64,000 nucleotides of DNA from Hormiphora californensis (Eukaryota > Animalia > Ctenophora): the NCBI GenBank assembly GCA_020137815.1, contig CM035358.1:2728001-2792000 (forward strand). The letters run 5' to 3'. Of the stretch, positions 1 to 63,726 are shown piece after piece (positions within the stretch are counted from its first letter, which is position 1; every line of letters starts with the position of its first letter). A program made the position numbers and the translations under genes. The notes below the pieces were generated by a model, which made no database searches, had not been told where the DNA came from, and saw only the letters and a program-made list of their open reading frames with translations.

Positions 1-2848
1 TCAGTTTAGAATTTGCATTAATGCTCGACAGCTTCGGGTACTGGAGCTTATAAGGGTCTGGAACAGCAGTCGATCTGGTACGGCAAGTAACATCAACGAT
101 ATCTGTAGGTATTTGCTCAATGAGGTAATCTGGAGCACTTCCATGTACAATCTTATAGGCCATGAGACAGGCCTTAAAGATCACCCGTTGCTCCACAGGG
201 AGAATGTGGGTTTCTCTCATGTAAGGGAGGTAGTCCTCTTGATGACCGTGGAGTCCATAGATAAACCTTATACAAGAGTTGAGCACTTTCTGTAACCGAG
301 AGATGAGCTTCATTGGCAAACCTCCATAGAGGACATTGCAGTAATCCAAGCGGGATATAACCAGCTGCTTAACAAGAAGGATTCTGGTAGAGAAGTCCAG
401 GCATCGGTGGACTTGCCATAAATTCCTCAGTAGCATTCCACAGTTTCTTCTGACACTGTTCACCTGACGTTCCAATGTCAGGTTCTCATCCATATAAATA
501 CCCAGAGTCTTTCCGGTAGTACCTGTGAAGTCAACTGGGTAGATATCTGCATCCCCAAACCTAATACAGGGCTCAAAAGCCAGCTTGTCAATGGCACTGC
601 TCTTCCCTAGAAGAAGGAGCTCCGTCTTCGACTCATTACACTTCAGCCAATGCTGAACCATCCAAGTCTTGATCTGATCAAGACACTCTTCAACTTTCCT
701 CCTCGTGATACTCCATCCACTTTCATCAAGAGGGACTAGACTCACATAGATTTGAGAGTCATCCGCATAGAGTTTGATTTTGAGTCCATACTTGTGTACC
801 AGATCCTGTAGTTCCTCAACATATAAAAGAAACAAAACCGGTCCGAGAAGGGACCCTTGTGGCACTCCACAAATCAAGTAGATAATCTTCGATAGTTCTC
901 CTCTAACGTTGACTCTGAAGTTCCTCAGTCCAAGATAGCTAGTAAACCACTTGAGTGCTGTTCCTCTTATTCCAAATCTCCTTCTCAAAACATCCACAAG
1001 TTTAGCATGGTCAACCGTGTCGAACGCTGCACTCATGTCCAAAAGGAGTAGAGCTACAACATTTCCCTTATCCATCTCCTGCAGTAGATCATCAAACATC
1101 CCCATGAGTAGAGTTTCACAGGAATGACCAACTCTATATCCTGACTGGTGAGAGTTGAGTAGGTCATTTTCATTCAGAGCCTGATTCAGTTGATCAAGGA
1201 CAACTTTCTCTAGAACCTTAGAGACAAAGGGAAGGTTAGACACAGGACGGTAGTTGGAAAGGCTATCACGATCACCATAGGGGTTCTTGATGGTTGGAAA
1301 AACCAGTGCTTGCTGGAACAATTCTGGAACAATACCTTGACGGATAGAAGAATTGATAATCTTAGTAAAGAGTGGAGCAAAAACTTCCACGCACTCTTTG
1401 ATCAACCATGTCGGTATAAGATCAAGATCACACGTTTTATCCGACATATTCTTAATGATCCTCTTCATCTCATCCTCAGAGACTTCCCTGAATTCCTCAA
1501 GAATACAATCCTTATCCAGGTCCACAAGAGAGTCCACATCCTCCGCAGGAAAGTCCATATCTGCCTTCACTGAGTTCCTGATTTTTTCCACTTTTCCAGT
1601 AAAGAAGTCCGCAAAATCCTCGGCCAGTTTACGATCACAATCCACATCCGGCAACAACACCTCACTGTTTCCAAGTAGTCGATTTAGTTTCCTCTGTAAC
1701 GCTTTGGAATCCCCTTTTGATTCTTCAAGATCTTCTTTCAGATAGTTAGTCCTCGCTTCCTTATCAACTCTACTAAACATCTTCTTCATCACGTTATACT
1801 GCATCTTCGTAACAGGCGTCTTCTTGCTTCTCCAAGTCCTCTCCGCAGTCCGACGTCTTCTTAGCGCATCCCTGACATCATCATTGTCTCTCCACGGGCG
1901 AACCTTTTTCACTTTCTTTCTTCTCTTCAAAGGGACAAAACTATCTACTAACTCCTTGAGTTCTCTTTCATAGATCTCAAACAAATCATCTGGGGACTCC
2001 AAATCAAACCGTCCTTCAAGGCCACTTCCTCTGAGGGCCTTCATGAACAATACCGGGTCCACTGATTTAAAGTCTCTGTAGGTGTTAACTCGATCCCGTT
2101 GCTGTAGGTTTCCAACCTTAGTCTCCAGTACGACTTCACTCAGAACAAGAAAATGGTCAGACTCTGTTCCCTCAGGATGTATTTCCACAGATTTAACTTT
2201 CTCCTCTACCTCCTTTGGACATATAACCAGGTCAAGAGTGCCTCCACGGTTGTGTGTTGGTTGCCTGGGGACAAGCTGAGAAAACTCATGTGAGTCCAGG
2301 AGTTCAGCAAGCTTCTTAGTGTAGAAGTTGTCCCTATCCTGCCATTGAAAATTAAAGTCTCCCATAATAAGGGGAAGACCAGTCTTCAATACTAGCTCTG
2401 AGAGATAGTCTGTGAATTCCTCTAGGAACTTCGCTTCAGTGAACCTAGCTTTACCGGTATAGGGCGGTCTGTAAACATTACATATCCGAGTAAGGTCCGC
2501 TCCATTACCAATTAAAATCTCCTGAATCTGGAACGATTTAAATTTCCTCACTGGTGGTAGTTTCATCTTAACTCCATCCCTGTAGAGTATCCCAATACCG
2601 CCTCCTGCCCTCTCCGCCCTAGGGGATGAGAAAATATTCCAGCCATAGTCTCTTATCTCCTGAAGTTTCGCGGTATCACTAGTCTTCAAGTAGGTTTCCT
2701 GAATCAGACAGATATCACATTCCATGTCCTCAAGATGCGCTATAACCCCAGACGTTTTATTCATTATCGAGTGCACATTTAGTGTGCCAACACGCCACGT
2801 CTCTTTACCTTCAGTTCCTCCCACGCCCTCGTCAGATAAGCGTTTTTT
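1..2848 (-). CDS. LINE ORF2: AP endonuclease plus reverse transcriptase (runs off the window start)
   Basis: Manual translation: WRVGTLNVHSIMNK...ICLIQETYLK (APE start, ~2800-2690), LDMSAAFDTVDH (~1010-1045), GVPQGSLLGP (~840-870), KLYADDSQ (~750-775). I did not check every codon for stops; its absence from the ORF track fits an ORF open to the edge. Confidence 0.9.
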
Positions 2849-4086
2849 CTCTCCTTACTGACACCACTTGTGTTCTCCATCAGTCTTCCTCGAGCATTAA
2901 CATAATGCGGACACAAGTTACTTGATGCTGGATGGGATTTCGCATACTTCTTGTCATCCTTACTACCTCCAACATCACAGTTTACACACTTCATCCGATT
3001 GAGTTCATTCCCACTCTTCGCCCTACATTGTCTGGTGTCATGATCTCCTGCACAGAAGGCACAGGTGGCGCTTTTATCTTTACTCGGACAATAGACAGAT
3101 CCAGCTACGTGTCCATAACGCTGGCAGTGGAAACACTGAGTAACGTAGAATCTGTCCTTCACAATGTGCTGTCTTAACTTCAGGAAAATCCTATCTCGAT
3201 TATCAGCAATGGCTTCTCGTATATCAGGTGTAACCTTGAGCACCGCATACCTCCCAGCAGTGTTAACATGAATGACACTGACAGCCTGCCCAGACTCATA
3301 TAGCCTCTTCACCACTTCATTCTTATCACTCAAGATGGCGTCCAATAGCACCTCTTTGTTCAACAGGTCATGGTCCAGATCGGAAATCAATACCCGAGGA
3401 TCCATCTTCTTCTGCTTCTCAACAAACGGAGTAACATTCAGAAACGGGGACAGCACTTTCTCTGCTTCTTTGAGGTCGTCATCAGTTGCAAAAAACAACT
3501 GAGTGCCCTTCCTGTTCACCGAAGTGTCCAAGACGGGGATGTTCTTCAGAGCTTTCACGACCTTTGGTTTCACTACCATTTTCCACTTCTCCTCACACAT
3601 TGGTGTCACTCCTTCCTCATTGCTGTCTTTGATGCTCATATACCGTTTCACAGGGGTAGCTGGTGCAGCTTTCTTCTCCTGCTGACCAGAACTACACGTT
3701 ACTTCACTCTCCTCTCGGTTCTTCTTCAATATCTCATTGACTACTGGGGCCATGAGTCCAGGTAGGCTATCCATCAACTCTTGCTTCAGTTTTGAGAAAC
3801 CATCCTTCAGATCATCACTTGAAATCGAGACTCCAGAATCTGACGATGGTGTAGGACTCCGGGAACTGTCCGGAAGCATCCGGTAACACATAATCAACAT
3901 CTGCCAAAGATCCTTCTTCGTAGGTCCACCTGGAGCATCCATAGGCTCACCCGGGGTACCAGCATCCTCCTCCAATTTCTTCCACACTGTACTGCCTTTA
4001 CATTTGTCAGAGAAGCTCGTGACAAGGAGCTTACCTTCGAAGTCCTTCTTCGTTCCACTTTCATACTGGGGTGCCAATCCCGACAT
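2779..4086 (-). CDS. LINE ORF1, gag-like nucleic-acid-binding protein with C-terminal zinc knuckles
   Basis: ORF 2779-4164 has CFHCQRYGHVAGSVYC, CAFCAGDHDTRQC and CVNC...H...C knuckles. The first ATG after the SL is at 4086 and is in frame (4164 is a TTG). Confidence 0.9.
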   Translation of the reverse strand: MSGLAPQYESGTKKDFEGKLLVTSFSDKCKGSTVWKKLEEDAGTPGEPMDAPGGPTKKDLWQMLIMCYRMLPDSSRSPTPSSDSGVSISSDDLKDGFSKLKQELMDSLPGLMAPVVNEILKKNREESEVTCSSGQQEKKAAPATPVKRYMSIKDSNEEGVTPMCEEKWKMVVKPKVVKALKNIPVLDTSVNRKGTQLFFATDDDLKEAEKVLSPFLNVTPFVEKQKKMDPRVLISDLDHDLLNKEVLLDAILSDKNEVVKRLYESGQAVSVIHVNTAGRYAVLKVTPDIREAIADNRDRIFLKLRQHIVKDRFYVTQCFHCQRYGHVAGSVYCPSKDKSATCAFCAGDHDTRQCRAKSGNELNRMKCVNCDVGGSKDDKKYAKSHPASSNLCPHYVNARGRLMENTSGVSKERKNAYLTRAWEELKVKRRGVLAH

Positions 4087-4272
4087 TCTATCCTGTAACA
4101 GTGGCGCGAGGATCCGATCCACCAAGATTTGGCTTCCTGGATTTGGCTCAACGAGGTCTCCCAAGATCTGCCCAACTTAGAAAGAGACAGGAACACCAGG
4201 CTTGTCTTGTCTTGAAAAGAGGGGGATTGAGCAGAAGTCTTAGAAGAGTAACGAGGAGCAGTTGAACGGAAC

Positions 4273-4314
4273 CTCAAATTAATTTGTTTAAAGTAGTGTT
4301 GAAAAGTTTGAAAC
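4273..4314 (-). other. Retroposed spliced-leader (SL) exon copy at the LINE 5' end
   Basis: Minus strand reads GTTTCAAACTTTTCAACACTACTTTAAACAAATTAATTTGAG, identical to 63104-63145 (+); it matches my recollection of the ctenophore SL. Confidence 0.85.
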
Positions 4315-5108
4315 CATAATGTTTCTAACTGCTACTTGAAAGTTTAAAAACATGAGAAGTGTTCATGAGAAATAAGTGCATCAGGTCCTCATTCCTTTAT
4401 GTTCCTTCTGTTATATTTTACAAGCACAGTTCAAAATTGTCACGCAAACATGGCAGTAAAGAGAGGGATAGAGGGAATGAGAGAGAAGAGAGAGAAAAGA
4501 GAAAGGAAATAAAGAGAGAGAATGAGAGAAAGGGACAGGATGATAGTCCCTTGTTCCACCACATGCAAGTGAGGTGGGAATTTGAGGAATGCAACTTGGA
4601 ATGTTTGCACAATGCGTTTTACACAATGTGTTTTACACTAGGGTTCAGAAAACTGAATTTCTATGCAACTGGAGTTTATACAATCATTACAATGTACATG
4701 CTTTTTCTCCCGCTCTCTTACTCTCTCGAAATATTGAACTTTTGTTCGTTTAGCACGCAAAATCATCATGATTGTGTGTATAGGGACATAGAAGAAGAGA
4801 GAGAGGGAGAGAGAGAAAGAAGAGAGAGAAAGAAAAAGAGAGATTGATTGGCAATTTGTTGATGGGCGCCTGGATATTGTTGACATTGGTTTAATCGTCT
4901 ATTTGACTCCAACGTCCTAGCATGACTTTACCTACATTCATCTCCTAATATGGCATAATGACGGATGTAAAAAGGTCATCAAGTTTTTAATCGTCCTAAG
5001 ACCGCACATTATACACAGGTGAAATTATGAATATGCAATGAGAATTGTTGCAGCTCTTGTAGTGCTGTGGTAGTCGTGTAATCAGACCTTACGGAAATGA
5101 TTACGACT

Positions 5109-5560: not shown

Positions 5561-6362
5561 AGGAGGCGAATGCATCCAAGATGCCCACGAGGGCCCCTGG
5601 TACCTATGTGCCTCCTGCAATTAGAAAGGGAGACAGCCGCGATGACAGCCAGTCAAGGCAACGAGGTAATAAGGCTACATTTTTATTTCACAGTTAATAC
5701 TGTGTGTTTTTAAATGACTGAGACTGTTCAAATCGACATAGCATCAAAAGTTGTGAATATTTTGCTCTGAAATTTTAGGACAAGGTAGATGGCTACCTGC
5801 CATTTATTGTACTCGAATTTCAGCAAAATCGGTCGTTCCTGAATGAACCTATAGCCCAAAAACCTCCTCTAACTTTGAGCGCTCAGATCTCTGCAACCTG
5901 ATGAGGTAGAGAGCTCAAACTTTCACAATATGTTCATTAGACAATTTACAAACTTTTGGCTGCTTGGTTTGGCGATATCTTTTTTAGTTCCTTCGCAGGA
6001 ACGCGGCAAAGTGGTGTAAGTCGGCCTAATTGGGAGCATTTTTGCACTCAGGTATCACGTATCACGTGTCTTACTGGGGGTAATCAGCCCCAGCAATGTG
6101 TTACACCGATTCTGTAATTGGTTCCGAGTGTGGCAAAGTGTGGCGCTTCGTCAGCAGACGTGATCATAGTGTCTGAAGTCGTTGACAAGGTCACGTGACT
6201 AGCTGTGGTGCTGAGTGTGGTAGAGCGTGGCGCTTCGTCATGACAAGAGAGAGGGAGAGAGAGAAAGAGTTATACTCAGCAGATAGAGAGAGAGCGAATC
6301 GGTGACACTAGACGTTGTTATCATGTCGAGATGTTCCACATCTAATCACGTGACCTTGTAAC

Positions 6363-6405
<43 letters not shown>

Positions 6406-7860
6406 CAGAATGTAAAGGAAGAGAATTAGAAAAGTTTGTCTGGATTTCAGAGTGTGACCGATTTCGGACATTATGTCTGATCACGCCTGCTGACGAAGCG
6501 CCATGCACTTTACCACACTCAGCACCAATTACATAATCGGTTTAACACATGGCTGGGGGCTGATTACCTCCAGTAAGACACGTGATACGTGATACCTGAG
6601 TGCAAAAATGCTCCCAATTAGGCCGACTTACACCACTTTGCCGCGTTCCTGCGAAGGAACTAAAAAAGATATCGCCAAACCAAGCAGCCAAAAGTTTGTA
6701 AATTGTCTAATGAACATATTGTGAAAGTTTGAGCTCTCTACCTCATCAGGTTGCAGAGATCTGAGCGCTCAAAGTTAGAGGAGGTTTTTGGGCTACAGGT
6801 TCATTCATGAACGACCGATTTTGCTGAAATTCGAGTACAATAAATGGCAGGTAGCCATCTACCTTGTCCTAAAATTTCAGAGCAAAATATTCACAACTTT
6901 TGACGCTATGTCGATTTGAACAGTCTCAGTCATTTAAAAACACACAGTAGTTATGTCTTAACAAATAGCTCTTTTCTTGACATTTCTTCACTGCGAATAA
7001 GATATCATCGCATCTAACAATAGTTCCGAATATAGCAAATACCCTCTCTTTTCCAAAGATGAAAACCCGACTATCCGAGTATCGAATTTGGCGGAGGAGA
7101 CATCAGATAAGGATCTACAGGAGCTGTTCAAGCCATTTGGAACTCTCTCCAGGATCTACCTGGCAAAGGACAAGAATACTGGAATTTCCAAGGTTCGTAC
7201 AGTAGCAAATTACAGGGTGATGGACAATCAGGCAAAATGGCTTCGGTCCCGTCCCCTGCCTCCTCTCTCATCCCGCTAGAACTTAGCGGCGGCAGCGGAC
7301 AGGTGTTTCGCAGTGCGCGCACGAACAAACTTATAACGGAAAGGACACAATTTCAGCAGTTGGTCCGCGCGTCATCCAATGTTTAAACTTCACATCCAAG
7401 ACCAGGGGTGTTGAAATCTCCGACACACACTGTCAGAGATTTCACAATGTGATGAATGAAACACGCTCTTGTACAATAACTTTAGACGATGAAGCATTAT
7501 CCAACATTTTAAGTTAGCTAGTAAAATGTGAAAACTGCCTGAACAATAAACAATAAGTTGCCGGGGGTTACTTTTTCCCGCTCCAATTCACCACTACTTC
7601 CGGTGCTAACACCTCCCCCTCTCTCCTAACAGGGTTTCGCCTATATAACATACAACCGACGAGAGTCAGCGGAGAAAGCCTTGAAGCAACTGCACAGATA
7701 CAGATATGGACATCTTATCCTGCAAGTGGAATGGGCAAAGTAAGTTTAGAAGGGGGTCCCCAGGGAATATTTGGTAACCTAGCAGTACTAGAAATCCGTC
7801 TAAATATTCTCATATTTTCTAACCCACATTCTCCCTTTTTTCAGGCCCTCCGGATCGTGA
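5561..7860 (+). CDS. EIF3G: Translation initiation factor 3 subunit G, last four exons (5561-5665, 7059-7192, 7633-7739, 7845-7860); 5' exons not found in the window
   Basis: GT-AG exons join in phase to give GTYVPPAIRKG...DENPTIRVSNLAEETSDKDLQELFKPFGTLSRIYLAKDKNTGISKGFAYITY...YGHLILQVEWAKPSGS*, the eIF3g C-terminal RRM. Confidence 0.95.
5700..6947. mobile_element. Non-autonomous fold-back DNA transposon (MITE), ~470-bp TIRs, TA target duplication (Tc1/mariner-type), in an eIF3g intron
   Basis: TA|CTGTGTGTTTTTAAATGACTGAG ... CTCAGTCATTTAAAAACACACAG|TA; the arms are near-perfect reverse complements. Confidence 0.9.
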
Positions 7861-10862: not shown

Positions 10863-11900
10863 CTAGGACGAGTACTCAAAACTAAATGTTATATTCCTCT
10901 TATACTCCTGGTCAGGTTGAAGAATACAATCCGGGAAGCCCTTCACATTAACCGCATTTGGGAAGTTCTGAGCCTCCAGAGCGACCCCTGAATGTTTATC
11001 ATACCTCTTCCCACCCTTACCCTCGGCTGTTCCATCTAGATAATTACCGGTGTACACATGAATACCAGGCTGATTTGTGTGAATCTTTACCCTCCTCGTA
11101 TCACTGGCTATCTCCGCTGCTGGAACCACCCAGCCATCCTTAGCTAGCAATGCAAACGTGTGATCGAATCCACCGCTGACAGAACTTATCTTGTCGCAGA
11201 TGGGCGTGTCCCTGAACTCAAATGCCGTCCCTTTGCAGTCGATAATCTCACCCGTTGGGAGAATTGTGTCAGAGTTCATTTCAATATACCCTGCGTAATC
11301 ATAAACAGTTAATTTATCTTTAAGGGCACTCTCCTCACCACCTGACATATTGAAATACGGATGGAAGGTAAGGTTAATGGGGGTAACCTGATCACATGTT
11401 GCAGTCATATCAATGCTCAGGAAGGTACCCTTCACCCTCCCTCCTCTTGTCTTACTCCTAAGCGATATGTCAACTGTGACAGTCAGACTTCCCGGATACC
11501 CATCCGTGCCATCCGGCTGGAAGTGAGACAACCTTAGCACATTGTCCAGAACCTCAACATCCCAGACGACCTTGGACAAACCAATAAACCCGCCATGCAG
11601 GTGTGTGTCATTATTATTGTTCAAACTCAGCTGATAATCATTGTCACCGATTGAGAACTGTCCACCTCCGATACGACCCGCAACTCGACCAACTATACAG
11701 CCGGAGTAGAAATCATGATCCTCATACCCACTGACATCATCAAAACCCAGCAATACATCAACACCATCCGGGAAGATAAATGAGACAAGTGAGGCACCGT
11801 AGTCTGTTACAGATATCTCAATTCCAGATTCACTCTTGCACGTGTACAAATTACATGCTTTGCCACTTTTTAGAGTGCCAAATGGCTTAACTTCCCACAT
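10863..11900 (-). CDS. GALM: Aldose 1-epimerase (galactose mutarotase), intronless
   Basis: 345-aa ORF with GRVAGRI, HLHGG, NLTFHPYFN, GFDHTF, QPGIHVYTGN and LEAQNFPNAVN motifs. Confidence 0.93.
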   Translation of the reverse strand: MWEVKPFGTLKSGKACNLYTCKSESGIEISVTDYGASLVSFIFPDGVDVLLGFDDVSGYEDHDFYSGCIVGRVAGRIGGGQFSIGDNDYQLSLNNNNDTHLHGGFIGLSKVVWDVEVLDNVLRLSHFQPDGTDGYPGSLTVTVDISLRSKTRGGRVKGTFLSIDMTATCDQVTPINLTFHPYFNMSGGEESALKDKLTVYDYAGYIEMNSDTILPTGEIIDCKGTAFEFRDTPICDKISSVSGGFDHTFALLAKDGWVVPAAEIASDTRRVKIHTNQPGIHVYTGNYLDGTAEGKGGKRYDKHSGVALEAQNFPNAVNVKGFPDCILQPDQEYKRNITFSFEYSS

Positions 11901-12230: not shown

Positions 12231-13679
12231 TCAGTCTAAATCGGAATAAAAAGGTTCAAACATCGGATCATAGTAGACTAGTCCTCTAAGTGACTCCGGC
12301 TCCCTATAAAGTTTTGAATAAGCTGGGTTAAGATAGCTTTCCGGAAATCGATAACGTTTTATATGACAATGGCCGGAAGTCGGTTTCAATTGGGTACATG
12401 TTAAGTTGTAACTGTCGTCGTCAACATCTTCTCGATCGATAACAATTTTCAAACACCTGCATTTTTCATAACACATTGGCCAATTATAGTCATCACCAGG
12501 CTTGCCATTATTCATGGGAGCAAGGTTCATTGGATCGCTAATTTCTGAAAAAGGAACCCGCCAGCCTCCTTCGAGTAACATGCTATTTCTAAGGTAAAAA
12601 TCACATGCAAACCACTCTGGAATTGACACGTGTATAGATTTCCATCCCCGCTCTCTCTTTACTACCTCAATCCGCTCTTCTGCTTCATACACATCGGCAA
12701 CAAAAGGGATATGAGTACATATTGTCCCCAAAAAGTTCCACAAGTTATAGAACTTATAACTATTGTCAATAAGAAATTGAAATCGTTCCTCATCCGTATT
12801 GCCAGGAATGTTAGTATAACAAAACCAAGTCGCTACCATACCATCATCCGTAGCGGCAAGACATGATTTTCTAAAGTTTAACAACCACTGAAAATCAGCC
12901 GAAGTTAGCAGCATATGGCTATCAAGGATAATACCAAAGTGCAGTGCGAACTGTGTCGTATCCGATTTAGCAAGGCTATGAAGACAGGACCTTTCCAGCA
13001 GAAACTTGAGGTTATCATTCAAACAAAACATTCCATGCTCTATATCTGAGCCGAGTTTGGCAAATAGATGAGTCAGCAGAATACAGGTCTCTCTATCGCA
13101 CTCGGAACACACCAGTAGCAGTTTCAGTTCAATCTTGGAGAGACTCTGATACCGTTGGCAGAGTAGCTCGACTAAAGCATCTCTGGCATTCAGTTCATAC
13201 ACCCTCGTCACTATAGAGTTGAGGGGGTTTGTTTCTTCGAAGAGGTTTGTTGGGTAGTGATTGGTCCACATGAAGCATGCTTCCTTTAGTAGTGGACCCA
13301 CAGTATCAGCTGTAATTTCTTGCAAAGCAGCTACTTGTTCCCCGAACCACCAAAAACATCTCTTGCTCGCCCAATCAATTAACCAATCACCGCACAATTT
13401 GATAAGATCACGGAAATACTCAAGGGAAATCTCCAGCCTTCCAGATTTAACAGCCGCAACCAAAGATCGGACAGCCATGTCACTGTACTCTGAAAGGTCT
13501 AAATCAATGTCCCCCTCTCCATCTGCCTTTATTTTAGAGAAAAGTTTATGGCTATCATGCGCTAAAACAAACGTCCTGAGTTTAAGTGTATCTCCAGAGT
13601 TTAGGAAGAGATTAAAAAATCTAACATTCTTGAACTCCCATTCCAGTAAAAGGCGATGATGGGACGGAAGCTGAAACAA
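12231..13679 (-). CDS. Intronless lineage-specific protein with a divergent N-terminal BTB/POZ-like domain; true start uncertain
   Basis: 482-aa ORF that begins at a TTG inside a splice acceptor (TTGTTTCAG). FNLFLNSGDTLKLRTFVLAHDS...DLDLSEYSDMAVRSLVAAVKSG fits the BTB pattern and resembles the BTB region of 31544-33316. Confidence 0.65.
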   Translation of the reverse strand: MFQLPSHHRLLLEWEFKNVRFFNLFLNSGDTLKLRTFVLAHDSHKLFSKIKADGEGDIDLDLSEYSDMAVRSLVAAVKSGRLEISLEYFRDLIKLCGDWLIDWASKRCFWWFGEQVAALQEITADTVGPLLKEACFMWTNHYPTNLFEETNPLNSIVTRVYELNARDALVELLCQRYQSLSKIELKLLLVCSECDRETCILLTHLFAKLGSDIEHGMFCLNDNLKFLLERSCLHSLAKSDTTQFALHFGIILDSHMLLTSADFQWLLNFRKSCLAATDDGMVATWFCYTNIPGNTDEERFQFLIDNSYKFYNLWNFLGTICTHIPFVADVYEAEERIEVVKRERGWKSIHVSIPEWFACDFYLRNSMLLEGGWRVPFSEISDPMNLAPMNNGKPGDDYNWPMCYEKCRCLKIVIDREDVDDDSYNLTCTQLKPTSGHCHIKRYRFPESYLNPAYSKLYREPESLRGLVYYDPMFEPFYSDLD

Positions 13680-29449: not shown

Positions 29450-31128
29450 GCCCAATTTGCGAGAACTCAACAGCAATTTGTGGAGCACTGGTACTGCGTC
29501 AAAGAGAGTTTGAAGAACAGCAGCGGATCGTTAAATGCAGGTGGATGAAACTATATTCGTGCTCGATTCTAAGTATTATAGTGAGCCCTTTTTTATGAGA
29601 GCTTTCAGGTTGACAGCTGTGCGCTCCCTTTCTTTTGAAGTAGGGAGATAAGAAACATTAAGTAGAAAAAGTAGAACAGCTCTTATTATAATGGGTTTTT
29701 ATCTTTACTGTGCCGAGTTTTTAGGATGCTGCAAGAGAAGGAACGAGGTTGAGATTTAAAACAGCTGGAATCTCTGCATTCCGTCACTCAGCTGCATTGA
29801 GAGTTAGAAAGATTCGGACCTTATAAAAACGAGAGAGAGGTTGAATATATGGGCACTGTATTACAACAAGCTGTAACACCTTGCCTCTCAATTCTCCCCC
29901 TTGTCCCACGTACAACCTTCTGATACATTTTGTACTGAAAAGAGTTTGTATAGAGAAAGATCGACTGTGTTTATGTTCTAAATTGTCTCACAAATGATAG
30001 CTCTCTCCGTGAGCGATGATAGTACAGTCCCGTAGATCAATGACAATTGACAAGTTCCGTGCAAGCTACCAAAGTTGATAACGTCACTCCTAGCTCTCAT
30101 CACCCTCTCTCTCCTCCCCAGATGTATACGACAGCAAAGCGGCCAGCCACATCGCCGAGATGATTTATATGATTGAAAATGACAAGGCACCACCAGAATC
30201 CGATTATGTAAGTGTTCTGTGGGTGGTTCGGAATAAGAGAGATAAGATTTCATATGTCATGATTCGTGTGGCTCACATTGGTAACGAAGTTACCCCTCCC
30301 TTGCCGGCGCGGCGTGCGAAGCACGCCAAACGAAGGCCGCGAAGCGGCCTGAGTGTGAGGTGTCTTCGATAGATTTGACTCGTGCAAACTACTAGCTTAC
30401 TACAGAACAGAGAACAGAATTTTGTGTAATTTAACTGATTAAGTCATGACAAGGTACACCAAGGACTGTCCGCGGTGTCATCTGACACACAACTCCTGAA
30501 AATATTGTGTACAGCGTGGTGGTGGAACGCGCGTCCGCCGAACTGCTTTCGAACAGTGATTTGTGCGCGCTTTGGGGGAACATCTCCCCCATACCCCGCC
30601 ATCGCACGCGTCATCAATCGATCTCCCCTCGATCTCACATGATTCTCATCCGATGCTTTCCTAACCCTTTCCAATTATTTCCAGGGTCCGTGCGTAGAGT
30701 TTATCCTTCAGCACGATGTGCTAGGAACACTACAGAAACACGCTCAAAATGATGTACCAGTCGGAATCAGGAAGATTGTCCTGACCTTTCTTTCTCAGCT
30801 AATCCAGAAACTTCCCCGCTCTGCCCTCCCTCATCTTCACATACATCGTCCACTTCAGGTATTATGATAACTAGTGTATGTGCTAACGAAGATTAATAAG
30901 TTAAGACATCTCTAATAACACAAATTGTTTCTCTCAGGATATGCTGTGCATATGCGGGAGCGGGAAATATCCTATTGACGAAATTAACTTCATAACTTCT
31001 ATTCTTGGGAAGTTCCACGAGGATCCATCTCTGGTTAACTTGTTCATGAACGAAACACTCGGACGTAACGGCTCAAAGGTATTTATACTCGTGAATTGTG
31101 ATTTGCCCATAGCTTCCGTGGCGCAATA

Positions 31129-31161
<33 letters not shown>

Positions 31162-31280
31162 CTGGTTCAAGTCCAGCCGGTAGCGAAGACTTTTTGCACT
31201 TTTTTTAGTCCAACAAAAGCAGATGAAAGGGAACACATTTTCCCACTTTCTTTTCCAGACAGAGCTTCCGTGGCGCAATA

Positions 31281-31313
<33 letters not shown>

Positions 31314-34300
31314 CTGGTTCAAGTCCAGCCGGTAGCGAATACTTTTTGCACTTTTTTAGTCAAATAAAACACCTTTTTCTCACAACAGAATATAATGTAC
31401 ACGCCAAAGTTTTCATACTACATACGAGAATCATAAACACACAGCATGTTTTCACACATTTTTTCTGAGAAACAATTATTTTTTCTGAGAAACAATTATT
31501 TTGTATAAATCCCTGTCATGACTGACCATTATGATTATGGCAATTATGTCGATGTTTTACCAAAATTAAACTTTATTTGGCGGGAGAAAAATACCCTCTC
31601 CTTCGTAGAAAACGGTCTCTGTGACTTCGTGCATGGCCAGCAGGAATCCTTTATCCTGTACCAATGGTTCCTAGCCAGTGTTGCTAATGTGCCATCGATT
31701 GGCTTCAGCTCTTCTTTATTTTTGGGTAGCTCTCCAGTGAAATTATATTTTGAACACATGTCGTACTTCAGTGATAGGGCATCATGAAGAACAATAAGTA
31801 ATTCATTGTCATAGAGAGCAATGTTGAAGTTTTCTATTACGTACTGAAGTAAAGGAATGTCGTTTTTCGAAGCCATAAATAGAAGTGAACATAGTTGCTG
31901 ATGAAATTCAGAAAGAAGGTCAAACTGAACAACCACAACCAGTAGCAAGTCCATTTCAGATCGTTTTGTAATGGTTGTTAGCAATCTGGAAAGGTGAAAC
32001 TGGAAATATTTTTTTCTCTCAGGGACGAAGGGCTGCGACATAAGGTGATCCAAAAACGTGGTGTTTTCATATTTTACACATGCGTCCAATGCCAAAGTTG
32101 CAATATCCCAGAACTGTCCAATTTCTAATGCCTCCATCTTGGATTTGGAACGGGCAGTAGTGGCCGAACCCCATTCATTGTAGAGTATAAAATACAATTC
32201 AGAAAGTTCCCATTCAACTTTAAAAACTGCGAACATTTTGAATAATTCCTTCTTCACACTAAAAGGATAGGGACCTCTATACCAAGGGTAGTTACTCAAT
32301 ACCTTCTTAATGCTTCCCGAATAACAGGCATTGACAAATACCCGTACCGATTTTGGGTCAAAGTCAGTCACATCATGGTCTAGTTCTCCCTCCTTCTCGA
32401 TAAGATTCTTCAGGACCGGAGAGCTTTTGGTCAGAATGTAGGAGTTCAGAGGAATGGTTTTGCCATCTTTTAGAGTAAAACTGATGTTATGATGTACTGT
32501 TTCTTCTCGACAGTGTTCACCAAAATCAGGCGTATCATGTTGAGAGTGAGCAAGTGGTAAAGAAGCTGCCCTGTCTATCATGAAAGTAACCACAGATTTT
32601 TTATCAGGAATTTCAGAGTTATCAAAATGTATATATCTTCCAAGAGGTTTTTCTTTCCCCGGTTTGGATCGACTTCCAATAGTTATAGTCAGTAGAAGTT
32701 CTTTAACACTGATGGTACCGCTTGTGTTATCTACGACAACTGTAAATTTTACTCCATATTTGGATTTCCGTCCCTCAGCAATCCATGTTATTCCATCCTC
32801 TGTATGGCTTGTAGAGACAGTATCATCTGTCATAAAGTCCTCTAACTTTCTGTGGAAGACCACTACGTTGTTCCGAACTGGTGGAGCCAAAGGTAGTCCA
32901 ATGTAGCTGTTGTTAATCTTAATATGAACTTCAATGTCCAAATATTCAATTCCATCCAGATCCAATCTTACTGGATTGATGAATTTTTCCAACCTCTGTG
33001 GCGAGCTTTTCGAAAATATGTGATGGAACAGCTCTGTTTGAGTTTTTAGACCGTAGAGAATCGGATCTTCATCCCCGGTATCCATGTATCGCATTTGTTT
33101 GAGTACAAAATAACTTGCATCACAGTACCATTCTTTTGCCGAGTTAATTGGTTGTATAGAAAACTGAACATCAAAGTCTTTGCCATTATTCTGCATTTTA
33201 AGCTGTAATCTGAATTCCTTGTAGAACACCATGGCACTTGAATAACAGATATCCGTCTCAGAGTACTCGGACCGCATCCGATTCTCCCAAAAACTCCCCA
33301 TTTTGACTATATCCATTCCACTCTGCAGGTAGTAAATAATTAGTTATGAAGATTGTGTATAACAGGCCAACGAAGCCGATACTAAAACAGCTGCGGGCTT
33401 TAGATGGCAGAAAAAGCATATTCAACAGAAGACAAGCATCACAAGCGTTCTTATCTCACTCATATTCTGTCACGGGGTGGGGTTAGACTAGCAAAAAAAG
33501 CGGCGTTAAATTTCACTGGACCAAAGATAAACACAAGAATTCTAAAATCTAACCTTTTTTCAGAGTTACGAGTTGAGACTCCTGGACGCCCTGATATCCC
33601 TGTCCCATTTGAAGGATGACAGAGTGGTGAAGAAGAGTTGTGAGAGTTTGTTATTGTGTGTAGCGGCTGATAGTGAATATGTGATTGACAACATTCTCTC
33701 CTATACCATTCTCGTCCAGGATTTGGTGAGTGAAAATGACAGACTGACACAGTATTACACGCGGTACAGTCGAACCAAACCAAACTACACAACTGTTTCT
33801 TCGCTTTAGCTTCGCACACAGCATCAAAGCTAAAGGTAGCTACGCGACAAGACAGTCTTTTGTGAGACTGATCATATGCAGTACAAATTCAATACAAAAT
33901 TGTCTAACACTGCACCTTCCCTAGTAAAATCCAGCTCCCCTGTCCAATTCCCCTACTTCTAACTCCCCCTCCCCTGCTTCAGGTATCCCGGTTATGTCAG
34001 AGGTACGGCTGTCTCCGTGCTGAGCCCTCTGTTCTACTTTACACTAACGTATCATGGACCTCCCAGTTGGAACACACCATCGCAGAACACACGGACTCAT
34101 CTGCAATCCGCCTTTTATTATGGGTTAGTGTTGGTGACATACATACACATGTGCGAGATCGATATTACACTAAGTGAATGGGTGGCAATGGCACTAAGGG
34201 TTAGTGTTGGATAATGTGGGAAGGGGAGCGTGAGTGTGATAGGAGTTGGTGGTTTGAATTTTAATTAGGAGGTGTTTAGGGATTTAGTGGTTTGGAAATT

Positions 34301-52066: not shown

Positions 52067-54896
52067 ACGCGGTGCATGTTAAACCCACTGTGGGGGAGAT
52101 TTGTCCGATCAGAGAGAGAGGGAAATACCCGGAAAATTAGCAACCGATTGGAGGACAAAGAACAATGGCAACACGACAAATTACCCCCCACCCAGAGCAG
52201 CCGGGACCCAAATAATAGACAGATTTTCCAAGGAGTGGTGGACTAGACCGTCCACCTTGGCACCTAACTAATCATGATACCTCCCACTGTTAGCATGAAA
52301 AAACTAGTAGATGAAGCAAAACTCGAAAGAATTCATCTAATACCTACTCCTAATGTATTTCTTAGCTCATTTTGCTACTCATTATGTTACTAATCATGTT
52401 ACTAACCTACGACAACGTGGTCGATCTCCGCCTGTAAGTCAGCCGCAGGATCTGAAGATGGGGTACGGGGTCCTGGTGCTGGGGGCGTAGTATTGGTAGG
52501 GGTTGCTGCCGTTGTTACTGGGGTGCTACAGTTGTTCATGTTGGGCTCAAGTTTCACCTGGTGGAAAATGTGGGAGTTAAAAAACGAATCACTCACATAA
52601 TTTTCTGGAATTTAACTATTGAATCATTCATGTGAGAATAATTAATACTGGAATTACAACCAACCTGCACAGTTGAATTATTGTTGCTGTTAGTGATACT
52701 GTTGGGGGTAAGTAGAGCAGTTGGCGTCGTTGTGTCCATGGGGGTATCCTTTCCACCCTCCCCACTATCGCTACCACTCTCCTGTTCTAGCTCCTTTATT
52801 TTTAGTTTAATGCAACAACCACTCTTCTGAAGGCTATTCAGGGCGTCTACCACCTCTCGATTTGAGCTGACCTGCAAATATAAAGGGGGTAGTAACTCAG
52901 CAAAAAGGGCGTGTATAAATTGTAGAAATGGAACAACACTCCAAAGTGCAGAACTTTACTAAAATATTAAGACCTACTAAAAATGAGTTGTAGCTGGTAA
53001 ACTCGGCAGTAAAAAAAACTCGTGCACAAACTATAAAGTGTACTCAGGAGAAAGACCGATTGGAGAATGGAAGAAAGCTAGAAAAATGCAGATTTTAACA
53101 ACTATTCAGTAGAATAATATGGGTAATATGGTAGTTCTGGGCTGAACATTTTCGACCGCTTTAAAGCGCTTTAAAGCGTTTGAGAAAGCGCTTTATAGCG
53201 CTATAAAGCGCTTTAAAGCGGTACCGCTTTAAAGCGCACCGCTTTAAAGCGCTTTTAAAGCGCTAAAAGCGCTTTAAAGCGATTCTTGTAACGATTTAAA
53301 GCGCTTTTGAAAGCGCTATAAAGCGCTTTCGCAAGCGCTTTAAAGCGCTACCGCTTTAAAGCGCTTTTTTTTGTTCAAAATCCAAAAATAAAGCGCTTTA
53401 AAGCGCTTTAAAAGCGCTTTAAAAAGCGCTATAAAGCGCTTTTAAGAACGCTTTATAGCGCTTTAAAGCGCTTTAAATCGTACAGTAGCGCTTTAAAGCG
53501 CTTTTTAAAGCACTTTTAAAAGCGGTCTAAAAAGCACTTTTAAAAAGCACTTTTAAAAAGCGCTACAAAGCGCTATAAAGCGCTTTTTAAAGCGCTATAA
53601 AGCGCTTTGTAGCGCTACAAAAAGCGCTTTATAGCGCTTTAAAAAGCGCTTTATAGCGCTTTCGAAAGCGCTTTATAGCGCTTTATAGCGCTTTGAAAAG
53701 CGCTTTAAAAAGCGCTTTTTATAGCGCTACAAAGCGCTTTAAAGCGCTATAAAAAGCGCTTTTTAGCGCTTTAAAAAGCGCTATGAAAAGCGATTTCGAA
53801 AGCGCCTTTTAGCGCTACAAAAAGCGCTTTAAAGCGCTATAAAAAGCGCTTTAAAGCGCTTTATAGCGCTATAAAAAGCGCTTTAAAAAGCGGTTTTAAA
53901 AGCGCTTTAAAGCGCTATAAAAAGCGCTTTATAGCGCTTTGTAGCGCTTTTAAAAGCGCTTTCGAAAGCGCTATAAAGCGCTAGAAAGCGCTTTAAAGCG
54001 TTTGAGAAAGCGCTTTATAGCGCTTTTTAAAGCGCTTTTAAAGCGCTTTAAAGCGCTTTATTTTTGGATTTTGAACAAAAAAAGCGCTTTAAAGCGGTAG
54101 CGCTTTAAAGCGCTTGCGAAAGCGCTTTATAGCGCTTTCGAAAGCGCTTTAAATCGTTACAAGAATCGCTTTAAAGCGCTTTTAGCGCTTTAAAAGCGCT
54201 TTAAAGCGGTGCGCTTTAAAGCGGTACCGCTTTAAAGCGCTTTATAGCGCTATAAAGCGCTTTCTCAAACGCTTTAAAGCGCTTTAAAGCGGTCGAAAAT
54301 GTTCAGCCCAGAACTACCATATTACCATAATATGAACTCAAGTCGCTGAAGTGCGTGTGCGTCTGAGTGGGGCTTCCCCGAACAAAATAACTCTTAGCAG
54401 TGCCAGTCACAACTCTGCTGCAAATACACCATGCTCGAACACAATGTTACATGCTAGTTCCTTACCGGTCAAAATGAAAAACTGAGATATCTAGGCAATT
54501 ATGATAACTGGTAATAATTGTTATTTTACAAATCTGTGTTACAAAGTTACGACGTTCGGGAACACTACAATCAGGATCTGTCATGATTCAAGACAAATAT
54601 TATTATCTTAGTAAGATAGAGAGAGAGACGATGGTTGTGATGTTACTACCCTCCCTAAATCTACTAAGATTTCTACTCACCGTAATCTCGTCATCGTCAT
54701 CATCAACATAGCTTAACCGAACATTCCCGTTACTATAACAATCAAAGTCGTACTGCCGTGATAACAAATTCAGGATGTCATCGTACGGTTTCTCGTGGTC
54801 AAGAATCTTGAACTTTCTGATCTCATCCCGGTATGCTACCTTCACGTATATTCCCCCGTTCAAACAGTGCTCGATAGCATCATTCTGCATTTTCAT
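41212..54896 (-). CDS. PB1-domain protein with a long low-complexity S/T/P/N-rich tail; ~10-kb intron (~42461-52408); apparent frameshifts in the 3' exons
   Basis: Exon 1 IYVKVAYRDEIRKF...VRLSYVDDDDDEIT and exon 2 VSSNREVVDAL...IKLKI form a PB1 domain with the basic K and acidic OPCA motif. Further GT-AG exons at ~52409-52557, 42301-42460, 41898-42146, 41448-41765 and 41212-41332. Confidence 0.75.
47292..47442. repeat. (CTCTATCT)n octamer microsatellite merging into (CT)n
   Basis: Directly visible; one of many (GA/TC)n tracts in the window. Confidence 0.9.
50130..51055. other. Low-quality, homopolymer-inflated sequence (probable assembly artefact)
   Basis: Abrupt switch to long A/G/C/T runs, with the same signature as 24096-25630. 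Confidence 0.8.
53122..54326. mobile_element. Non-autonomous TIR element with 8-bp TSD (ATAATATG) and GGTAAT termini (Merlin-like), filled with AAAGCGCTTT palindromic repeats
   Basis: ATAATATG|GGTAATATGGTAGTTCTGGGCTGAACATTTTCGACC ... GGTCGAAAATGTTCAGCCCAGAACTACCATATTACC|ATAATATG. The superfamily call is inferred from the GG ends and 8-bp TSD. Confidence 0.85.
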
Positions 54897-59387: not shown

Positions 59388-59873
59388 ATCCTTTGGGGGG
59401 AAATGGTCATCATATCAGGAGAAAGTGACACCAAGAAAAACGGATATTTCAAGAGACTCGTGTTTTTATTTTAGCCAGAAAGAGTTGTATCAGCTGCAGC
59501 TGTGTTCTAACTTTGTTTACTTTTGAGATAACGCCTTTTCTTTACTTCTGGCTCGATAGATCTGTCCAGACTCCACTCTCCAGTGTTGGACACTGTGGGA
59601 CACAAGGCGGGGTGGCATTGAAATGGATTCCGAACGGAACGCGCGGCCATTGAGGGTGGTCTCCCAAGTTGAAAGTACAGCATTTCAGCACTGCTCGCAC
59701 GTCTCTGAAGGCGGGGTAGTTTTGCACGCGCAAATAATAACGCGCGCCGCGTTTTAATACCGAATTGATAAAAACGTGAACTTTTTCAGCTGCAAATGAC
59801 TTTTCAACACGTTTTTTGTCGTTTCGTTCCGCTTTCCAAGTTCCCAAACATTCAAAATACCCCTTCCCCTAGA

Positions 59874-60188
59874 ATGTTCAATCTAGCAAGGACCGTTCGT
59901 CCTGCTGCCATAGCTCGATTTAGTCGAGCTTGTGCCAGCACCCATACTGGTCAATCATACGAAGTGAACGACCCCCGAAACGCCCGATTTATCGGAGGAA
60001 AAATGAAGGAAGTGAACCCCAACTTTGCTGTCAATATGGTAGCTGCGGAACCCATCGATGTGGTTGGTAAAACACACATTTATTGCGATGGAGGGCACGG
60101 AGCTCTTGGACACCCCAGGGTTTTCATTAATTTGGAAAAGGGAGTTACAAAGTCGTGCGGGTACTGCGGTAAACAGTTTAGAGCTTGA
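59874..60188 (+). CDS. NDUFS6: NADH dehydrogenase Fe-S protein 6 (13 kDa, zf-CHCC), intronless
   Basis: Mitochondrial presequence MFNLARTVRP..., THTGQ..DPRNARF..KEVNPNFA, CDGGHGALGHPRVFINL..CGYCG. Confidence 0.95.
   Translation: MFNLARTVRPAAIARFSRACASTHTGQSYEVNDPRNARFIGGKMKEVNPNFAVNMVAAEPIDVVGKTHIYCDGGHGALGHPRVFINLEKGVTKSCGYCGKQFRA

Positions 60189-60448: not shown

Positions 60449-63726
<3,278 letters not shown>

Follow-up and report, generated by a model that had tools for sequence, protein, structure and literature searches.

Host spliced leader at the 5' ends of a ctenophore LINE and most of its relatives: a probable origin by trans-splicing

The LINE described here and most of its relatives start with the spliced leader (SL) of their host, and sequence comparison makes it probable that this leader was gained through trans-spliced RNA and that the RNA is spliced again at the leader's own AG. 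That the LINE head derives from trans-spliced RNA in some form is very likely. The element lies at the edge of a 64,000-nucleotide stretch of the Hormiphora californensis genome (hereafter the window), in which the following features bear on the argument.

2..2764, minus strand: ORF2, 921 aa, stop-free and continuing past the window edge
2779..4086, minus strand: ORF1, 435 aa, uninterrupted
4087..4272, minus strand: ATG-free 5' UTR, 186 nt
4273..4314, minus strand: spliced-leader copy forming the LINE 5' end, the 44-nt leader without its first 2 nt
4313..4391, minus strand: upstream flank (target site), matched by contigs of two samples
7004-7279, opposite strand to the LINE: RRM_1 exons, the nearest recognisable ones upstream of the LINE
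63104..63145, plus strand: second spliced-leader copy (site B), 43 nt including the preceding A

Leader-headed LINEs in the window and in other loci

A sequence-only reading of this DNA had drawn attention to a 42-mer shared by two sites, and the observations on which it was built hold. Exactly two copies of the 42-mer are present in the 64-kb window, one on the minus strand (4314-4273) and one on the plus strand (63104-63145). The base before it is G at the LINE and A in the other copy, and in the LINE it is followed by 186 nt (4272-4087) that contain no ATG. The range of 4086-4320 originally given for the head takes in 6 nt of flank. The runner-up ungapped match to the 42-mer anywhere in the window is 25/42, so the pair cannot be put down to chance, and by the same measure (best 25/42) no degenerate leader relics were found elsewhere in the 64-kb window. 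The identification as a ctenophore SL proved correct, with 42 of 42 bases matching the 3' end of the 44-nt leader given for Hormiphora californensis in the available text of PMC8527503; the match by itself points to a pleurobrachiid-like ctenophore. According to the same text, this leader is present on 56% of Iso-Seq reads and in 718 genomic copies, and 491 leader copies are counted in the Mnemiopsis genome.

The body of the element is that of an APE-type LINE, as had been supposed. Pfam matches in ORF2 are RVT_1, Exo_endo_phos, and Exo_endo_phos_2, and the N-terminal end of ORF2 holds the APE domain both in the window copy and in all six relatives scanned. A restriction-like endonuclease of the NeSL/CRE/SLACS type was rejected for the same seven copies, and an RNase H domain was not matched by Pfam in the element or in the scanned relatives. 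ORF1 carries a CCHC zinc-knuckle-like motif at residue 318; its Pfam search returned no family at E 0.001, and zf-CCHC is weakly matched in ORF1 of three of the seven relatives scanned. Two ORFs, APE and RT domains, the lack of an RNase H match, and tandem-repeat tails (seen in the relatives) are likewise found in the CR1 group (L2-like) of LINEs, and we regard the element as L2-like within that group, a label that rests on RT motifs which we take to be of L2 type and not on placement in a reference tree. The window LINE departs from the CR1 group in that its 5' end comes from the host leader and not from element-specific promoter sequence. The ORF2 frame stays open for 20 codons further upstream into the end of ORF1 (2824-2764, minus), as far as a GTG at 2824; in its place L001 and L002 carry an ATG, which L004 and L009 also lack. 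As the sequence stands, translation of the first endonuclease strand of ORF2 would depend on a non-AUG start or on coupling to ORF1.

ORF1 has 33 relatives at 29-79% identity, and alignment of the window ORF1 with 24 of them yielded 14 loci out of 166 candidate stretches. Three were excluded from the leader count, L003 and L014 because they begin within ORF1 and L006 because it begins within the UTR (judged by eye against L007). In ten of the 11 loci that reach far enough upstream, the element starts with a leader that is immediately followed by 118-188 nt of ATG-free UTR, which makes it most likely that, as proposed, the RNA was trans-spliced before reverse transcription. ATG is absent from all 11 UTRs (window plus ten), with shuffles giving P 0.03-0.10 for each, although related UTRs are not independent. 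The remaining locus, L002, has no leader and a different sequence upstream; its alignment with the UTR is confined to the final ~45 nt, near the start codon, and it looks like a 5'-truncated copy. The layout of a copy can be summarised as flank, leader minus its first few bases, ATG-free UTR, ORF1, ORF2, and a short tandem-repeat tail. Such tails were found in L001, L002, L009, L010, L012, and L013, the 3' end of the window copy lying beyond the window. No target-site duplication was found in the three loci compared, two of which have 6-nt flanks, and these repeat contigs are possibly mosaics.

In all 11 heads the boundary between leader and UTR is exactly the splice junction. The expectation that the SL would be joined at the same base in different surroundings is thus borne out, with one junction in 11 heads and upstream flanks that are unrelated to one another in the seven loci compared. 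Every head has a single leader, and tandem relict leaders are absent. The exact match to the window leader extends over 42 nt in L001 and L009, 41 in L004 and L007, 40 in L005, and 28 in L008, and these six loci show no difference from the window in the last 27 nt. Five of them come from one assembly and the sixth from another. The four remaining leader-headed loci come from four assemblies and carry variants that differ from the window leader at 2-4 positions over the last 27 nt:

L010:1-27: variant leader
L011:133-178: variant leader
L012:322-367: variant leader
L013:133-174: variant leader

The leader matches in L011-L013 were reached by none of 200 shuffles and the weaker match in L010 by 2 of 200. 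Judged by their sequence and position, the variants are candidate spliced leaders of other ctenophores. Three of the four are absent from the literature covered (open PubMed Central and bioRxiv text), and a search for the L013 variant found no match there. The Mnemiopsis leader of Derelle et al. (2010) is reportedly similar to the L013 variant. The leader pattern had 0 matches in viral contigs.

The insertion site in DNA contigs

Contigs from four of the 22 listed DNA runs were compared with positions 3400-4700. Summed contig depth, which is not a copy number, was about 390-35,000 over the LINE body, 0-310 in non-repetitive flank bins, and 301,000-442,000 in the leader bin. Contigs passing from the UTR into the leader were present in X3 (record 12, 4165-4298, depth 679, 0 differences), in X6 (records 21 and 22, with 10 and 8 differences), and in X8, which bears a second organism label (records 29 and 30, with 15 and 28 differences). 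Contigs of family depth join UTR to leader under both organism labels, diverged subfamilies included. X6 record 21 alone has at least 31 letters on each side of the junction; the remaining four records cover 17-26 letters of the leader. Per run, 20-24 contigs part from the window at 4273 with an agreement of 0.42-0.44, which means that many different sequences adjoin the leader in DNA. One contig in X2 (depth 31; 4314 to 4285) apparently holds two tandem leaders two letters apart, an arrangement that appears to be rare and to lie somewhere in the genome.

None of the contigs listed from the four DNA runs links the window LINE's own flank to the leader, as might be the case if the head were an assembly artefact or a one-off chimera. 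However, L001 and contigs from several runs have the same leader-UTR junction, and ten other loci share the same anatomy. Such an explanation is scarcely credible, and at worst it touches the placement of the window copy alone.

Two contigs, X3 record 13 (exact) and X6 record 23 (4 differences), track the flank from 4391 to 4313 and then exit, continuing with 48 and 60 non-leader letters, respectively. The four flank contigs listed have a depth of 16-53, compared with 679 for X3 record 12. By their sequence, X3 record 13 and X6 record 23 likely represent the LINE-free allele. Since they are free of both leader and LINE, the two likely arrived together, and the insertion of the window LINE is probably polymorphic. 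The flank contigs agree with the window through G4315, G4314, and T4313 before departing; most simply, the target and the start of the leader share a 2-nt microhomology and G4315 is target DNA. The idea that the extra G before the leader is a copied cap is therefore unnecessary, and it fails on the presence of the same G in the LINE-free flank contigs of two samples. A cap-derived G was also rejected among the relatives, as the five with a near-full identical leader have A, C, A, T, and T before it.

The same contigs bear on the possibility that the LINE inserts beside an existing leader, as NeSL, CRE, and SLACS do, or that its head was donated by an SL RNA gene. Genomic leaders are abundant, and a GT stands directly after the leader in 4 of the 11 heads (window, L001, L010, and L013), which would suit a target or donor of this kind. 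Yet the leader is missing from the LINE-free flank contigs, the flanks are unrelated and the leaders 5'-truncated, 7 of the 11 heads have no GT, all five folds are no better than shuffles, and the endonuclease is APE and not restriction-like. We consider this account very improbable, and insertion into SL genes or leader targets is largely refuted. A head that is itself an SL RNA gene or donor was rejected on the GT counts and folds, and the earlier remark that the LINE has no SL-RNA context is sustained by the leader-free flank contigs and the seven unrelated flanks. No ribozyme or stable 5' structure was found when the five folds were compared with shuffles (z -0.29 to +1.76), and an Rfam scan of the window and four loci recovered only two tRNAs.

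Constancy of the leader and its possible renewal

The leader has stayed the same while the rest of the element has diverged. The window ORF1 is 44-48% identical to those of L004, L005, L007, L008, and L009, identity at fourfold sites is 24-29% (saturated), and UTR similarity to the same loci is near the shuffle level (z 1.2-2.8). The window UTR is 87% identical to that of L001 and cannot be aligned with those of other families. The ORF1 sequences of L012 and L013 are more similar (53%), yet the two leaders differ at 5 of 27 bases. Moreover, none of the eight copies of the window leader type (the LINE head, site B, and the six loci) keeps all 44 nt, and seven of the eight are 40-43 nt long. If each copy is trimmed by at least one base and this length is nevertheless held, the trimmed bases must be restored. 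The only AG in the leader is its terminal one, which we propose from the sequence as the acceptor in the next round of trans-splicing, and it is likely that the leader is renewed there.

It is also conceivable that the leader was captured once and has been inherited since, with an internal promoter acting from its first base and no re-splicing; its identity would then be maintained by selection on translation or promoter function, or by template switching to host leaders in the course of reverse transcription. Leader type does track the ORF1 tree (13 rows; L003 and L014 left out), in which the families with identical leaders are found on the same side of a branch supported at 100/100, a topology compatible with inheritance under strong selection. 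The proposed acceptor, a GAG with a short T run, would be weak relative to host sites; four cis-acceptors of the neighbouring ATP-synt_C gene, identified by eye, are all pyrimidine-rich CAG. In addition, internal promoters are the rule for LINEs. L1Tc produces unspliced transcripts from an internal promoter (available text of PMC1874656). Inheritance would nonetheless have to accommodate zero leader changes despite saturated synonymous sites, whereas the leaders of other loci vary; a length that is held although every copy is short by at least one 5' base; and a 3' boundary that coincides exactly with the splice junction in 11 of 11 heads. On balance, we regard it as unlikely.

A further possibility is that rare master copies, equipped with an upstream promoter and an outron, are the only active ones and that their SL-headed daughters are dead ends. 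This would account for the exact junction, the identity of the leader, and the ragged 5' ends without calling on a GAG acceptor. Contigs drop rare variants and may thus conceal a single-copy master, and L002 does carry other upstream sequence. However, L002 matches only the last ~45 nt of the UTR, as expected of a 5'-truncated copy; contigs of family depth span the junction without a break, with no loose end at 4272 among those listed; and a promoter that is removed by splicing is not heritable. A lineage should accordingly end with its master, yet several lineages have lasted to synonymous saturation. Reliance on masters is decidedly improbable. If everything upstream of the junction is lost in each cycle, SL-headed copies must be able to restart a lineage.

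Under renewal by trans-splicing, a cycle of the element could proceed as follows. Transcription would start at or upstream of the old leader, from an internal promoter or by host read-through. The AT-rich old leader would then serve as the outron, which the spliceosome would exchange at its terminal AG for a fresh capped leader, an exchange that would restore the lost 5' bases, reset mutations, and leave no relict chain. Ribosomes would scan from the cap to the ORF1 AUG. LINE ORF2 proteins insert element RNA by target-primed reverse transcription, and here the reaction would come to a ragged stop within the first bases of the leader.

Promoter independence, which had been put forward for this LINE, does not follow from such a cycle, as identical products would be expected from an internal promoter located at the old leader or a little upstream of it. 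That the LINE is fully promoter-independent is possible but doubtful. No same-strand host transcript was identified beside the LINE in the window sequence. The RRM gene near the LINE, which is presumably eIF3g-like, lies on the opposite strand, and the nearest gene on the LINE's strand, ATP-synt_C, ends about 4.4 kb from the leader. On a wider reading, likewise possible but doubtful, an old ctenophore LINE clade would have no promoters at all: each copy would be a trans-splice acceptor in transcribed DNA with its old leader as the outron, and the host spliceosome would free it from read-through RNA, cap it, and supply the current host leader in each cycle. If this were true, many of the hundreds of ctenophore "leader loci" would be insertion heads, and each would be a portable trans-splicing site.

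Known systems and further features of the window

The occurrence of SL-headed retroelements is not wholly new, as it has already been suggested in passing for flatworms. In parasitic flatworms, 597 discarded loci with partial leaders were tied to LTR and LINE elements, and the available text of PMC12582326 reads them as what "may be" integration of trans-spliced RNA; six SL-containing retroelements were also described in parasitic flatworms, where assembly chimeras are possible (available text of PMC5832876). In Hydra, about 30% of transposable-element Iso-Seq reads carry an SL (available text of PMC12220107). As in the window LINE, the leader is thus found on LINE or LTR loci or on their transcripts. 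Insofar as these texts go, the flatworm and Hydra cases consist of a passing remark or of RNA only, whereas the ctenophore LINEs present an exact clade-wide junction, a likely allele free of both leader and LINE, and signs of long-continued renewal. For ctenophores, or at the level of a clade, no report of SL-headed LINEs was found in open PubMed Central and bioRxiv text, a coverage that leaves most subscription papers and Repbase outside. The available parts of PMC7986045, PMC9911081, PMC12460157, PMC11067881, PMC4558846, PMC2566580, and bioRxiv 10.64898/2026.05.21.726589 hold nothing on ctenophore SL-headed LINEs.

In dinoflagellates, an AG inside the genomic leader is re-used as an acceptor (available text of PMC3229502). 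This mRNA recycling resembles what is proposed for the ctenophore LINE, in that trans-spliced RNA is retroposed and the AG of a genomic leader is used again. On that account, however, the dinoflagellate genes are host passengers and the inner AG gives rise to decaying relict chains, whereas in ctenophores an autonomous element would cycle. With its only AG at the end of the leader, replacement in ctenophores would be clean and leave one leader per head, as seen in 11 of 11. NeSL, CRE, SLACS, and CZAR are also non-LTR retrotransposons that adjoin a leader, and the clades with restriction-like endonucleases and their targets are described in the available text of PMC4640811. These elements use a restriction-like endonuclease and have the leader as their target, whereas the window LINE has APE, is dispersed, and carries its leader in.

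LINEs must rebuild their 5' end in each cycle, a problem whose known solutions are an internal promoter or a ribozyme that cleaves itself. In R2 elements, a self-cleaving ribozyme defines the 5' end. Trypanosome L1Tc/ingi elements (Pr77) and R2 also have to define their 5' end inside host transcription and do so in different ways, the former with an internal promoter and the latter with its self-cleaving ribozyme, whereas the window LINE has no ribozyme-like fold or Rfam match. The present data point to a third answer, host trans-splicing, which would have been retained clade-wide and to the point of synonymous saturation in an early-branching animal. This answer offers an explanation for the leader copies counted in Hormiphora (718) and Mnemiopsis (491) and is a reason not to equate these copies with SL RNA genes. 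LINE heads also provide a way to read a ctenophore leader from DNA alone.

The second leader copy in the window, site B, is followed by CC and not by a GT donor, and thus is not an SL RNA gene. It stands in sense orientation, 37 nt within a putative 467-nt intron (63067-63533) that is predicted from two flanking in-frame exon candidates; the putative host gene is acidic and serine-rich. After the leader comes a 13-codon ORF whose stop overlaps an AATAAA. No target-site duplication of at least 6 nt was found at site B within the window. Site B is possibly the head of another retro-insertion.

Other features of the window include four single-exon ORFs, none with a leader relic upstream, and the two tRNA genes:

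10863-11900, minus strand: single-exon ORF, aldose epimerase
12231-13478, minus strand: single-exon ORF with no assigned family
31544-33316, minus strand: single-exon ORF, BTB
59796-60188, plus strand: single-exon ORF, zf-CHCC
31112-31185 and 31264-31337, plus strand: pair of tRNA genes of equal Rfam score, offset by 152 nt

Among the near matches to the 42-mer, a unit of the AAAGCGCTTT type is repeated on both strands at about 53400-54070. Finally, identical stop-to-stop translations on opposite strands at about 5730-6920, between exons of the RRM gene, indicate a putative ~1.2-kb element with long terminal inverted repeats.
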